Shown one piece after another: positions 14,648 through 35,566 of a stretch of 64,000 nucleotides of DNA (positions are counted from its first letter, which is position 1; each line of letters begins with the position of its first letter). The notes under the pieces are model-generated. The model was not told the origin of the DNA. It saw only the letters and a list, made by a program, of their open reading frames with translations, and did not search any database. Position numbers and translations under genes: made by a program. Origin of the DNA: Nitrosopumilus sp. (GTDB taxonomy: Archaea; Thermoproteota; Nitrososphaeria; Nitrososphaerales; Nitrosopumilaceae); assembly GCA_965207075.1 (NCBI GenBank), contig CBDBLO010000002.1:1920001-1984000 (forward strand), written 5' to 3'.

Positions 14648-14792
14648 CCCTTTAGACCCGCAATCATCCTTTGCGAGTCGATTTCAGCTCGAATTTTGCC
14701 CTCCGGATTCGTGCCTGTCAACATGCAGATTCGGGGCAAAGTGAGATTTAACCCTGCTGGTTGAGTTCGAGTTACTTCCAACTCAAACTCTC
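14648..14792. repeat. ~145-bp integrase-5'/att-like repeat, copy 1
   Basis: Aligns with 31765-31908 (CCCTTTAGACCCGC core; CAGATTCGGGGCAAAGTGAGATTTAACC; TGCTGGTTGAGTTCGAGTTACTT). Confidence 0.85.
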
Positions 14793-15023
14793 CAAAGCAC
14801 AGATTACCAGCGATACGAGCACCAAGCGTACGGAGCCACAATGCAGAACTCAGGGCCGTCGTAGGACCCGCAATCATAACAGGTAACCGTTTGACCCCCC
14901 ACCCACCCACTCCCCGAATCTAGATACAAGTTATGCCATACGTATCCGGATACAAGCAGAGCGATAAACGGTTACACCACATTCAACAGAGTATTTTTAA
15001 CAGTAGTGCAGATCTCGTGATCA

Positions 15024-18000
15024 TTGGATATACGACACGTTGTGTTGATGCCCATTGCCTGCGCCTTGGTCTTCTCCCTAGCCAATTATGCAGAGGCACA
15101 AACATACACCGGGGTCTTGGTGCTTGATCCAATTGCCTCCAAGATCAATACGGGAAGCACCGTGATCTTTTCCGGACAGCTAAGTACCACTTCGGGGCAC
15201 GCCATACAGGACGCAACGATCTACATCAAAGACGACGTGAGCTTTGGACGGGATGATGTTATTGGGACGCTTACGACCGACGACAACGGCGAATTCTATG
15301 GTACGTGGACCGCACAGCCACGCAGTAGCGGAGCATGGGACTTTTACGCCGAATACGAGGGCAGCTCACAAGTCACAGAGGCTCGTAGCGCAACCTACAG
15401 CGTCCAAATCTCCTCTTCCGGCTCCACGCATGTGACTCTTGACAGAATTCCCTCGTCAGTTTACGCAGGAGACTCCGTCACTTTCACCGGCACGCTTACG
15501 AGCGGCGGCTCCCCGCTATCCGGAAGGACCGTCTGGATATACGAGGACGACTTCGGGCCGGACGACCCCTTGGCGAGCGGGACGACCGACAACGCGGGAA
15601 GGTTCTCCATAAAATGGACGGCCAATGCCGGCACCGTGAATACCGGCTCTGAAGAAATCTACGCCAAATTCTTCGGAGACGGACAACACTCGGGCGACGA
15701 AAGCCCTAGGCAGACTACGAGCGTCTACGACAAGCGCGGCAGCTCCCTGACGTTGGATCCGATACCGAACCGGGTATACGCCGGCGATACGGTCACCTTC
15801 ACCGGCACGCTTACGGGCGGCGGCTCCCCGTTATCCGGAAGGACCGTCGCGATATACGACGACGACACGCTCAGACCCGACGATTACTTGGCGCGCGGGA
15901 CGACCGACAATGCCGGAAGGTTCTCCATAGACTGGAAGGTCGAGGCGGGTACCGTGGAGATCGAATTTGACATCTACGCCGAATTCGACGGGGACGGGAA
16001 ATACTCCGACGACCAGAGCCGCAGGCAACCCATGAATGTCTACAAGCGCGGCGGCTCCCTGACGTTGGATCCGATACAGACCTCGGCCGCGCTCGGCGAG
16101 GCGATTCCGCTCTCCGGCACGCTGATGCTGGACGGCCGCAGTCCGGAAGGGTCCATCGTCTACATCAAGGACGACGACACGCTGGGATTTGACGACCTGC
16201 TCGCCACCGCATACGTAGATTCGTCAGGACGCTTTGCGACATACTGGATAGTGGAGGATGTGGATACTTTTGACTATACGATCGAGATACAAGCCGTCTT
16301 TGAGGGAGACGACCTGTACCGCAGGCTGGCAACCCCCATTGAGGAGCTGGACATCGACCCGCTGGCACCGGCCCCAGGCCCCACCGACCCGCTGGCACCG
16401 GCCCCAGGCCCCACCGAAGGCGAAGGTTACATGGAACTCTACTACTCGCTGGACTTTGAACGGGCCCCTCGCATGCTGATAGTGCCCAGCCCATACTCGT
16501 ATGATGAAGTAAGGGAGTACATCTACCCTGTCCGAGAGGGCATACAGCTGCTCACCAGTATGTTGGAGCAGGAGTACGGCGACGGGAACTGGAACGTAGG
16601 GGTCGAGGTGGTAGCGCCGGGGGAACGTACGACCCACAAGCCCGATATCATAGTCAATGTGGTTACAAGTGACGACGACTATGAGTGCCGTGACACTGTG
16701 TTGGGTTACGCTCTCCTCACTGGCCATAAACCTGTGCAGGCCGCCGTCTGCTACAAAGACGGCCGGACCAACAAGGACGTTGAGGCAACGGCCGTACACG
16801 AGTTCATACACGCCGTCGGTGTGGGGCACACGTTCAACATAAGAGGGGACAGGATGTGTAGCGTGGAGGATGGTGTTCCCACCTGCCCCGACTTGAGATC
16901 TAGATCCAAAACGCCCTCGGGCCTCAACCTTGCCGCCATCGTGGCCATATATGGGACGGACGGATTTCAAAACCCGAACAATAACCACGTCAGTTGGGGA
17001 GAAAAGCTAACCGTGGCCGACTACCGAAGCAACAAGCACCTAAGCTCATTGCAGAACCAAAACTCTCCGGCAGCCGTTACCGGGTTTGATGCTACCCCCA
17101 CCGCGCCGATCGGCGCACCGATGCCTCCGCTTGAGAGGGTTTTTGTCCCGGACCTGTGGATAATGGACGTCTCCGGAAACGCCCTTGACACCATATCCAC
17201 GAACCAACAGGTACAGATCGCGTCTGGCCTGACCAATCGTCAGGACCGCACGCAGACGTTCGTCTACCTTGTCCAGATCTCGGACTCCGACGGAATCACC
17301 ATGGCCCTAGCAGGGATCTCTGGCACGCTAGAAGCTGGGCAGACGCTCCGTCCCTCGGTATCATGGGTACCTACCGAAGCAGGCACGTATAGCGCCACGG
17401 CGTTCGTGTGGGAGTCGGCCGACAATCCGGCCGCGCTGTCACCGCCTGTAACATCCACCGTCATTGTAACTTTCCCTCCGCTGACGACTGAACCGCCTGT
17501 AACATCAGATCCGCCAGCTCCACGAGGACCAGAACCAAATCAAGACGTGCCACGGACACCAACAGATACAATAGAGCCAATGCCGGGCTCATCAACTGTG
17601 GGATGCGAGGCAACCATTGAGGGTTGCTCAATACCCGGGATATTGACCGTGGATCCTGGAACCGCCATAACATTCATGAACACCGACGATGCGGCCCACA
17701 CGCTTACTGCCGGTACAGCGATAGACGGACTCAGCGGTACGTTTGACAGTGGGCTTGTTATGCCGGGCGGGTCATACACATTCAGCCTTGACTCCTCAGG
17801 TACATACGATTGGTACTGTCTAGTGCATCCTTGGCGCACGGGACAGATCATAGTAGGAGATCCGCCAGCTCCACGAGGACCAGAACCAAATCAAGACGTG
17901 CCACGGACACCAACAGATACAATAGAGCCAATGCCGGGCTCATCAACTGTGGGATGCGAGGCAACCATTGAGGGTTGCTCAATACCCGGGATATTGACCG

Positions 18001-34598: not shown

Positions 34599-34622
34599 AA
34601 GGTACGGAGAGGCCTTGGGCAG

Positions 34623-35300
34623 CTAAATAATCTCGAGGTTTTTGTTTTTGTCGAACTTCTTTTTCATCATTTTGGATTTGTGCGTGGATGCGCGATTCAT
34701 TATCAGTGTGACTTTTTTAAAGTGTCGGAGAAGGGCCCTGACAAACGGGATGAACGTCTTGCTGTTAAAACCCACGGTCGTGGTTCTAAAGAGCTGCCGC
34801 CCCTTGTCAGTAATTGCTCCCAGCACTGTCAGCCTCTTGCGTCCCTCCGCATGTGTAACCTTTACCGGGGTTCCCATGGGGGACCAATACTTGTGACCCG
34901 CCGCGTCATTATGTATGAAGAATGCCTCGTCCATCGCCGCAACGGCGAATCCGGCCCTTTTCGGACGTACAATGCGCCTCTTCGTCCGGTGGCGCTGCGA
35001 GCTTGTCGTCCCGCTGCCCGCGCGTATGGCGCGCCGCGGTGGCTGTCTTGGTGGAGGGCCCGGCCCTCCCTACATGAGCCTCCTGACGTACGTCGCGTGG
35101 AACAGGATCCTCTCCCTCCCTTTTGACGTACCTTGTGCGGGGGTTCCGCGGGGCGGTCTCTGCCCGTCCCGCCCGACAGCATGTCATCCATCGTCGCCCG
35201 TCTGATCTTCGGAGGCCTTCCGCTACCGGGAGGGCTAAGGGGCGTCTACCCCGCCCTCCTCAAACCGCCTTGCCCGCGCCAAGACCCGGTTCAGACACCG
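34623..35300 (-). pseudogene. Frameshifted, truncated IS630-family transposase
   Basis: GSGRPPK and HTH fragments in different frames; MDEAFF...YWSPMG...IMNRASTH is homologous to 18719..19726. Confidence 0.8.
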
Positions 35301-35566
35301 CATGAGCGAGTTAGCCTGCGCGCTGCGCGCTCTCCGGGTTGCAATACGCTGCGTTCACCGCGGCCATCCTCTCGACCGCCCTTGGATCCTTTTCCCTTCG
35401 GTAGACCTGTTTGGGCCCGCTACTGCCCTTTGCGAGTAGTTTTTAGACCCGCAATCGTCTTTTCCGAGTCGGAGTAGGACTCGCGCCGTCTTGCCTGCTC
35501 GGATTCCCTTCCGGATGATTCGCCCGGACGCCTTCCCGTCCGGTCCCTTTTTTGCGCCCCCTGGCG

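Follow-up and report, generated by a model that had tools for sequence, protein, structure and literature searches.

Serial insertion of plasmid-like elements at a tRNA-Lys gene of Nitrosopumilus, and an integrase reading frame that may be split on integration

A 64,000-nt stretch of a Nitrosopumilus sp. genome (assembly GCA_965207075.1, contig CBDBLO010000002.1, positions 1,920,001 to 1,984,000; here called the window) contains a sequence of about 145 nt that recurs in the same orientation, and at one copy the minus-strand reading frame runs out of the repeat, across a short core and into an integrase gene. The locus raises the question of what these repeats are, and why an integrase should be readable across one of them. 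We are confident of the first part of the answer, that plasmid-like elements were inserted serially into the 3' end of a tRNA-Lys(UUU) gene and that the cores are their attachment (att) sites. The second part is graded lower: judged from the sequence, integration probably splits a long integrase open reading frame (ORF), so that the promoter and start codon are parted from the integrase body. Coordinates prefixed with w are window positions. C2 is the contig of this genome (G000; 2.23 Mb), and the window is C2:1920001-1984000.

The repeats are a tRNA-derived core and a conserved arm

A sequence-only reading of the window had described repeats at 14.6, 18.6 and 31.8 kb together with shorter cores, and repeat search and BLAST recovered all of them. 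Two copies, w14647-14805 and w31765-31921, consist of a short core followed by a longer segment, termed here the arm, and are 86% identical across 145 nt by BLAST. The repeat search resolved the same sequences as a 106-nt pair (14648-14753 and 31765-31870, 86% identity), a 108-nt family (14688-14795, 18570-18677 at 76%, and 31805-31912) and a 30-nt family (14651, 31768, 35410 and 35442). Within the cores the 13-mer GACCCGCAATCAT occurs exactly at 14655 and 14865 and with one mismatch at 35446; these three matches compare with 0.15 expected, and none of 100 shuffled sequences reached three. The 11-mer TTTAGACCCGC at 14651, 31768 and 35442 is weak by itself, as 1.01 matches are expected with one mismatch allowed and 7 of 100 shuffles reached three. 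A further core-like copy at 35410-35422 had been missed in the sequence-only reading. The copies, with the names used below for the segments that they separate (E1, E2 and E3), are as follows.

14647-14661, plus strand: core copy 1, 15 nt identical to the 3' end of tRNA-Lys(UUU), at the E1/E2 junction
14662-14805, minus strand: arm A, the left end of an E2-type element, with TATA-like TTAAAT at 14751-14746, ATG at 14724-14722 and then TTG at 14721-14719
14865-14877, plus strand: mini scar of 13 nt, the final 7 nt of the core and the initial 6 nt of the arm
18570-18688, minus strand: arm B, the distal ~110 nt of the arm, with the TATA-like box and start region present and the core and first ~35 nt lost
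31765-31778, plus strand: core copy 2, 14 nt of the tRNA-Lys 3' end, at the E2/E3 junction, in the attP-like order integrase-core-arm
31779-31921, minus strand: arm C, the left end of the E3 remnant, with a TATA-like box at 31868-31863 and a start codon for the E2 integrase ORF
35410-35475, plus strand: two truncated junction scars of 32 nt each, spaced 32 nt apart, at the right end of the array

No tRNA gene was found by ARAGORN inside the window. A tRNA-Lys(UUU) gene lies 7.7 kb to its left (C2:1912214-1912288, plus strand), on the same strand as the cores, with the 5' end GGGTCTAT and the 3' end TCCCTTTAGACCCGC. Its 3' end gives the longest exact match to any host tRNA for the cores at w14647 (15 nt), w31765 (14 nt) and w35442 (11 nt). 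The core had been proposed to be a tRNA 3' end whose host gene should begin with GGGTCTA or similar, and both the identity of the cores and the predicted gene are thus borne out. The arrangement, direct repeats of a tRNA 3' end on the strand of the tRNA itself, is that of a tRNA-targeting element. The core at w35410 differs in its target, with an 11-nt match to the end of tRNA-Arg(UCU). In a relative (G058) an arm lies directly at the orthologous tRNA-Lys. DNA from the right flank and the tRNA locus, searched in 31 and 41 genomes including G000, defined no empty site, because the relatives are AT-rich, too diverged and non-syntenic to the right of the tRNA.

The array spans 43 kb from tRNA-Lys to w35455, and most of it falls in the window. 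It runs from the tRNA through E1, a core with arm A, E2 with the internal arm remnant B, a core with arm C and the E3 remnant to the two truncated scars. The first scar joins the tRNA-Arg(UCU)-type core at 35410-35422 to ~19 nt of arm start; the second joins a tRNA-Lys-type core at 35442-35455 (exact over the 11 nt 35442-35452) to ~20 nt. The order integrase-core-arm at w31765 is that expected of a circular element, and in a chromosome it can arise only by tandem insertion. Arm B is 76-79% identical to the other arms and begins 7 nt past the stop of the 1179-aa surface-protein ORF at 15024-18563. Its description as a coreless copy just 3' of that stop was accurate. It is not an att site but the remnant of an arm, best read as left by yet another insertion followed by deletion.

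The arm is element DNA next to the crossover point

The sequence-only reading had suggested searching for the repeat genome-wide. A profile search with the arm located 8 full-length copies and 7 partial ones in this genome, the latter being 2 distal pieces and 5 core-proximal pieces, of which two match weakly (E 0.13 and 0.26). Two full arms directly continue real tRNA genes, tRNA-Ile(GAU) at c[813543-813619] and tRNA-Val(UAC) at c[2081134-2081210], and others lie next to cores matching tRNA-Lys(CUU) over 13 nt or tRNA-Ile over 13-14 nt. With a sequence-only covariance model the arm was detected in 3 of 100 other genomes of the genus, where real tRNAs adjoin 5 of 7 arms (Val-GAC twice, Met, Arg-UCU and Lys-UUU). 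The Lys-UUU arm has tRNA-Asp alongside, as in the present genome, and so marks the orthologous locus. Two further genomes were reached through their integrase loci, and there 4 of 9 arms adjoin tRNA-Val(UAC), tRNA-Met (twice) or tRNA-Ile; a third entry reached in this way was a genome included above and is not counted again. The related genomes, five in number, thus place 9 of 16 arms at real tRNA genes. Since arms adjoin real tRNAs both here and in relatives, the arm is element DNA beside the crossover point and not a free-standing repeat.

The position of the integrase relative to the arm completes this picture. The tRNA-Val element has its arm, with the ORF start, at the tRNA (C2:2081147) and its integrase ~23.7 kb away (2057632), with the region upstream of the integrase ending in a 13-nt copy of the tRNA end. 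At tRNA-Ile the arm is at 813556 and the integrase at 708674, and in the relative G113 arm and integrase are separated in the same manner for tRNA-Met and tRNA-Ile. These four cases correspond to the separation of int(N) and int(C) on integration that is one mark of SSV-type integrases.

The many dispersed copies could also suggest a small unit of ~145 nt that is mobile or structured in its own right, either a miniature inverted-repeat transposable element or a non-coding RNA gene, and that favours tRNA-like sites. The arm does contain a distal inverted repeat, with double changes in 8 of 34 predicted pairs. RNAalifold on 8 arms found this inverted repeat only, with a covariation term of just -0.22 kcal/mol, and an Rfam scan of the whole window gave no family at gathering score. 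The unit lacks terminal inverted repeats and target duplications, its orientation is always core-to-arm, 11 of 29 copies adjoin real tRNA 3' ends, and three arms are contiguous and in frame with integrases. We consider an independent element very improbable.

In metagenome contigs a 47-nt arm pattern had no match. An integrase search of metagenomes returned 52 loci, none above 62% identity and most between 36 and 56%; these are too distant to be expected to carry the arm.

Two sets of loci have an unusual geometry. The tRNA-Ile(GAU) arm and the Ile-core integrase described above have the layout of a single element and lie 105 kb apart (G000:C2:703384-813619), with seven more arm pieces in the interval or at its far edge; G113 is similar, at 94-102 kb. 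Such intervals may be very large arrays or the outcome of rearrangements between elements. At two loci of the family (L058 and L061), integrases ~73-80% identical to that of the window lie directly 3' of a real tRNA-Ile and tRNA-Val on the same strand, with the tRNA end 222 and 215 nt before the integrase Met, the orientation of the core being opposite in this genome. Both the Ile and the Val core include the palindrome GGGCCC, through which recombination might be possible in either orientation.

An open frame of fixed length joins arm and integrase

The integrase gene at the E2/E3 junction comprises two parts.

30054-31535, minus strand: integrase body, 493 aa from MTDDPP, a two-domain tyrosine recombinase with a small C-terminal domain
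31536-31838, minus strand: extension of the integrase ORF by 101 codons, with start TTG at 31838-31836, 20 more arm codons, the core and ~77 unconstrained codons

At 31.8 kb the frame is open from the arm into the integrase ORF (30054-31856), and at 14.6 kb the frame of arm A passes through the core and stops 6 codons beyond ...AGLKG, at 14626-14628; both had been read correctly from the sequence. Counted from the invariant (T/A)TG of the arm, the integrase Met lies at a distance of 303 nt in 9 of 9 cognate combinations, which come from two genomes. This length is made up of 62+241 nt, or of 63+240 nt in the Ile lineage of this genome, where the core is shifted by one base. Two of three non-cognate cross-genome combinations are out of frame, and the frame is lost when the Ile partners of different genomes are exchanged. 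In every cognate case the arm side and the integrase side read the core in the same frame, as AGLKG (Lys), NGPDE (Ile of this genome), GPRG (Val), GPM (Ile of G113) and GPKGF (Met of G113). The proposal that the repeats are scars of tandem integration therefore holds on three counts, namely the match of the cores to a host tRNA 3' end, the arms at real tRNAs and an arm ORF in frame with the integrase in all nine combinations.

These observations can be explained without splitting anything functional. In a classical layout of the lambda or pNOB8 kind, attP would lie upstream of an integrase that is made from Met w31535 under its own promoter. The arm would be a P' arm that binds integrase or accessory proteins and perhaps carries the promoter of a small RNA or peptide, and the open frame would be a by-product of rigid spacing and T-poor composition. 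The array and its att sites would be unchanged. We regard this explanation as rather unlikely, chiefly for what the stop codons show. Across the 231 nt before the Met in 12 close loci there are 3 in-frame stops, all at one locus, compared with 18 and 61 in the other frames. For the variable part of this spacer the counts are 3 versus 16 and 44; composition alone predicts ~28 in-frame stops there, and none of 20,000 shuffles left at least 11 loci free of stops. The arm side is likewise stop-poor. Between the start codon and the core end, 17 arms have 1 in-frame stop versus 29 and 18 in the other frames, and 0 of 5000 shuffles came down to one or fewer. At loci where host DNA instead of an arm follows the core, the frame closes within 4-17 codons (L057, L059 and i2057). 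By these frame statistics the att core appears to lie inside the integrase ORF, as in SSV-type integrases. A translated arm was also considered as a lambda-like folded arm-binding domain and rejected, as it is too short and shows no amino-acid constraint.

Promoter geometry of the arm

We aligned 19 arms from five genomes on the integrase strand. Their common pattern consists of the palindromic AGAGTTCGAA...CTCGAACTC, then CCAGCAGGGTTAAAT, 21 nt, and (A/G)(T/C)G-(T/A)TG-(A/G)CAGG. From the first base of the TTAAAT it is 27 nt to the ATG and 30 nt to the TTG. Across 1299 crude ORFs of this genome, the number of TATA-like hexamers is highest at positions -30 to -28 relative to the ATG, with 27, 37 and 32 occurrences versus mostly fewer than 10 elsewhere. 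As given in a gene-prediction study (PMC6028130), 11 of 11 Thaumarchaeota genomes are classed with archaea in which leaderless mRNAs prevail, and the promoter spacing of leaderless genes reported there for such archaea is alike. The box in the arm is thus a predicted promoter, suitably placed for a leaderless transcript. The arm also has three copies of a GAGTTCGA-type motif, at which the integrase or a regulator may bind.

The integrase is a divergent tyrosine recombinase

In sequence comparisons the integrase had no Pfam match at E 0.01 or better, matched NCBIfam XerA at E 9e-4, far below the cut-off, and its profile found nothing at E 1 or better among PDB sequences. Among the candidates scored, 1013 homologues were obtained, and those with a named source come mostly from Nitrosopumilus, Nitrosotalea and unclassified Thaumarchaeota; a second search gave 1550 representatives at 50% clustering. 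No relatives were found in viral contigs. An AlphaFold2 model built from a 117-sequence alignment reached a mean pLDDT (predicted local distance difference test) of 86.1 and a pTM (predicted template modelling score) of 0.73, and replaced an earlier model from 18 sequences (mean pLDDT 41.6), which was discarded. With this model Foldseek returned 34 PDB matches at E 0.001 or better over 330-370 columns that include both domains. The top match was archaeal XerA (5hxy, E 1.4e-7), and integron IntI (2a3v), Cre, XerH, Tn1549 Int and lambda Int were among the others. With numbering from MTDDPP, conservation across the 117 sequences is 90% or more for R151, K196, Y278-x-x-R281, H308 and Y316. The first His of the R..K..HxxR..H/W..Y signature is replaced by Tyr, these catalytic roles being assigned by motif order rather than structural superposition. 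By its modelled fold the protein is a divergent classical tyrosine recombinase.

The sequence-only reading had compared this integrase with the SSV type. In layout the comparison stands, as the att core appears to lie in the ORF near its 5' part. In homology it fails: the SSV-type model PF16795 (Phage_integr_3) matched neither the window protein nor any of 45 relatives, whereas PF00589 matched 10 of the 45 (E 1e-7 to 4e-4), one of them above the gathering score, and the best folds are those of XerA, IntI and Cre. Since it lacks this homology, the integrase is at most an analogue of the SSV type and not a member of that family.

Two accounts of the open frame

Several observations weigh against a long ORF that is translated and then split, and some of them are what the classical layout would lead one to expect. 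The conserved two-domain enzyme begins at Met w31535, as do most family members, and in 9 of 12 close loci the Met is preceded by a TATA-like TTAAA that begins 35 nt ahead of it. In the wider family, 40 of 79 loci show the classical arrangement, with same-strand tRNA ends 40-120 nt before the Met, and several of the tRNA-adjacent loci have a stop between tRNA and Met. Neither spacer nor arm shows a codon-position bias: spacer substitutions fall on all three codon positions alike (for example 15/12/6 and 20/22/34), and column entropy over the first 15 arm codons is 0.50/0.59/0.57. The 303-nt length never varies, even by multiples of three, which suits DNA spacing at least as well as coding and would be expected of an intasome scaffold. 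The three GAGTTCGA-type motifs of the arm also suit the classical layout. Only ~11 of 19 arms have ATG as their first codon and 6 have ACG, such that the start would often be TTG, and one arm (G058 L046) has an in-frame stop. The shuffle counts overstate significance because related sequences are not independent. Finally, junctions of excised forms had been suggested as a check. Of sequencing runs, 12 were listed, none recorded as RNA, and four runs were searched, as contigs only and at 90% likeness; a joint of 14648 to 31765 was absent from them, and a different joint, 14687 to 18570, was present in 3 runs of 2 studies and is described with the cargo below.

Splitting of a long ORF is nevertheless the reading that we favour. 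In the wider family (66 loci) the open stretch remains longer in the integrase frame than in the other two, with a median of 36 versus 8 and 9 codons. If attP lies inside the gene, some 100 unconstrained codons, those of the tRNA-derived core among them, would be kept open at a fixed length because a leaderless mRNA is translated from its 5' end. With a start in the arm and a frame that continues through the core into the integrase, integration at a tRNA would therefore part the promoter and start codon from the integrase body. The long ORF would then be translated in the uninterrupted state, and its splitting would alter the expression or the directionality of the integrase.

The steps may be envisaged as follows. 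The circular element would have the order arm, core, ~240 nt and integrase, and a leaderless transcript from the arm would give the long integrase, whose first 101 residues need only be readable. Recombination of the element core with a tRNA 3' end over the 11-15 shared nucleotides would integrate the element, leaving the arm beside the tRNA and directed antisense into it, and a promoterless long ORF at the far end. After integration only a short form from the Met could be made, and such a form, expressed from Met w31535 by way of the TTAAA 35 nt ahead of it, may indeed be produced. This integrated piece retains both conserved domains and the conserved Met, and so may well be active alone. A later insertion at the distal core would place a new arm ahead of the old integrase and rebuild the long ORF; at w31765 the arm of the E3 remnant would feed the integrase of E2 in this way.

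Composition and cargo of the array

The inserted segments have a lower G+C (GC) content than their surroundings, 51.8% in E1, 56.9% in E2 and 56.1% in E3, between flanks of 61.0% and 60.2%; the host is a high-GC archaeon of the family Nitrosopumilaceae. E1 begins at the tRNA-Lys(UUU) to the left of the window, E2 extends from w14647 to w31778 with its integrase intact, and the E3 remnant from w31779 to about w35413. The other features of the array are these.

1-14646, no single strand: right-hand two thirds of E1 (Pfam, PADLOC and GC content)
59-2827: E1 TrwB/VirD4-like ATPase (Pfam)
2814-3197: E1 AbrB/MazE-like gene (Pfam)
9956-13588: E1 complete Gabija pair, GajA and GajB (PADLOC, E 3e-181 and 6e-225)
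15024-18563, plus strand: E2 surface-type protein of 1179 aa with Ig-like and transthyretin-like domains and three cupredoxin/plastocyanin repeats
18719-19726, minus strand: E2 IS630-family transposase (Pfam), with 2 copies at 100% and 2 at 99.7% amino-acid identity elsewhere in the genome
21025-21426, plus strand: E2 AbrB/MazE-like gene (Pfam)
21413-24547, minus strand: E2 TrwB/VirD4-like ATPase (Pfam)
24585-25517, minus strand: E2 actin/ParM-like gene (Pfam)
26742-29993, no single strand: E2 cargo, an SDH/ClpP-like protease, a 150-aa ORF and an AAA_15 ATPase
28506-29993: the AAA_15 ATPase of this cargo, resembling PD-T4-4_A (E 4.6e-40)
31977-35413, no single strand: E3 remnant, in which arm C is followed by a PH-SHOCT gene and two pieces derived from insertion sequences (IS)
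31977-32663, plus strand: E3 PH-SHOCT protein (Pfam)
33193-34470, minus strand: E3 DDE_Tnp_4 transposase (Pfam)
about 34599-35413: E3 IS630-like fragment with its end

E1 also encodes McrBC-like proteins, an actin-like protein, a GHKL ATPase and two DNA methylases. Its integrase-like gene, 143 nt past the tRNA (436 aa, L001:7431-8741), was supported weakly (hhalign E 0.003 at 10% probability; PHROG integrase E 0.016). The AbrB, TrwB and actin genes form a module common to E1 and E2, in opposite orientation and at 74-90% amino-acid identity. Near the Ile-core integrase (C2:711-718 kb) there are matches to all three, and at C2:1778-1783 kb to TrwB and actin, with a weak AbrB-like match (27%). 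For a conjugation apparatus the TrwB/VirD4-like ATPase is the sole match, itself weak (Pfam E 2e-6, NCBIfam E 2e-5), and several ORFs have no family match. As Gabija is present in E1, beside the two methylases and the GHKL ATPase, and the PD-T4-4_A-like ATPase in E2, the array is also a defence island.

These contents bear on the other explanation that had been offered, an integron-like platform in which a resident integrase captures single-gene cassettes delimited by the repeats. The surface-protein and PH-SHOCT genes are indeed bracketed by repeats, and 14687 is joined directly to 18570 in contigs of 3 runs. The segments, however, are plasmid-like backbones of 17-22 kb or IS-ridden remnants. 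Single insertions at tRNA genes of six kinds (by anticodon) have the same arm as their left end, the 18.6-kb copy has no core, and there is no attI or Pc beside the integrase and no attC-like folded site. A cassette platform is accordingly dropped as next to impossible.

The 14687 to 18570 joint connects the first 40 nt of arm A straight to arm B and skips 3882 nt, including the surface-protein gene; its short side is only 39 nt. The contigs that carry it have a depth like that of neighbouring contigs. The hybrid junction is absent from this assembly, in which the nearest paralogous arm is 83% alike. The cargo segment may be polymorphic among strains; the joint would represent a form that has one arm and lacks the surface-protein segment. 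There are also a few backward joints at low depth (18679 to 14655 and 18707 to 14912), which contigs alone cannot separate from other strains or loci.

Further features of the elements were noted in passing. The cupredoxin repeats of the 1179-aa protein are encoded by three 300-nt units at 351-nt spacing (17507-18508) that are 100% identical, which points to a very recent duplication or gene conversion, or possibly to assembly collapse. One of the IS630 copies lies 1.5 kb from another arm copy (C2:762466), and from the identity of its copies the IS630-family element is recently active. Upstream of the E2 AbrB-like gene, at least 5 copies of a ATGCATATCATGCA-type motif (20896-21066) look like candidate iterons or an operator array. 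Between the actin-like gene and the ORFs that follow it, long perfect palindromes with arms of 20-23 nt occur at 25763-25958 and 26165-26212, in two related copies separated by 150 nt. Many contigs of all four runs break or switch strand there, and the palindromes may be a centromere-like or origin site.

At the tRNA-Lys(CUU) gene (G000:C2:2129168 onward), the 30 nt on the 3' side resemble those 3' of tRNA-Lys(UUU), and AbrB-like and other E1/E2-like matches follow 3-5 kb on; the locus probably holds a second E1-type element. In the Ile-core element, a 12-nt tandem repeat of the GGGCGCTTCGGC type sits between the actin-like and TrwB-like genes, and the four overlapping '???' tRNA calls made by ARAGORN within it (G000:C2:712737-713009) are false.

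Discussion

The nearest known design is that of the SSV-type ('suicidal', type I) archaeal integrases of SSV1/SSV2, pTN3 and pT26-2. As described in PMC8371274 and PMC7253208, these have a tRNA-3' att core in the integrase ORF near its 5' end, integration puts the N-terminal and catalytic pieces at opposite ends of the element, and related or tandem elements can supply a full gene. The cores there measure 40-50 bp, versus 11-15 nt here. The pieces differ as well. What is split off in Nitrosopumilus would be a promoter and a 101-codon unconstrained extension, the counterpart of Int(C) is a complete two-domain enzyme with its own Met, and homology to the SSV family is missing. Suicidal integrases have been suggested to stem from a single event in one monophyletic superfamily carrying PF16795 (PMC8371274), with a few mesophilic members from Methanosarcinales (PMC7253208). 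A full-text literature search found no paper pairing a suicidal integrase with Nitrosopumilus.

Integrated elements of Thaumarchaeota were surveyed by Krupovic et al. (2019, PMC6563490). As described there, they resemble the present array in targeting tRNA 3' ends, in encoding tyrosine integrases and in having short att sites, with a median of 17 bp. Further shared traits are a gene content like that of cryptic or conjugative plasmids, inserted IS elements, cargo of the blue-copper and defence kinds, and the build-up of arrays where a site is used again. That survey notes one split integrase (SSV1-like, in NitEve-E3) and is not known to describe a conserved arm with a promoter and ORF start. 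Tandem insertions at tRNA genes are ordinary, and the architecture of the junction is probably the new part.

Features of the lambda type are also apparent, with a long attP, a conserved arm, repeated short motifs (the putative GAGTTCGA-type sites in three copies) next to a short core, and rigid spacing. The lambda int gene lies wholly on one side of attP and its N-terminal arm-binding domain is folded and conserved, unlike the ORF of the arm here. In Tn916, promoters read across the joined ends, and it is the transfer genes, not int, that are affected. In Mx8, attP lies inside the int coding region and the 3' end of int is altered. Both of these bacterial systems resemble the present one in that the integrated and circular states of the element differ in gene expression or gene structure.

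Whether this PF00589-like integrase clade of sponge-type Nitrosopumilaceae represents an independently evolved form of the att-inside-gene design, with the long form turned off on integration and on again when a tandem neighbour arrives, is to us an evenly balanced matter. For practical purposes, the arm model together with the 303-nt rule allows element borders to be found easily where cores of 11-15 nt are too short to spot. If the proposed splitting is true, there would be a second, independent origin of the self-disrupting integrase design, in a common family of ammonia-oxidising archaea, suggesting that the design is selected for and not a frozen accident. The rationale would be simple, as a promoter and start codon placed across attP would make integrase output follow the state of the element. 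Remnants reduced to little more than an arm would be kept for re-arming the integrase of a neighbour, which would explain why such arrays persist, and an array of this kind would be a self-sustaining recombination hot spot.

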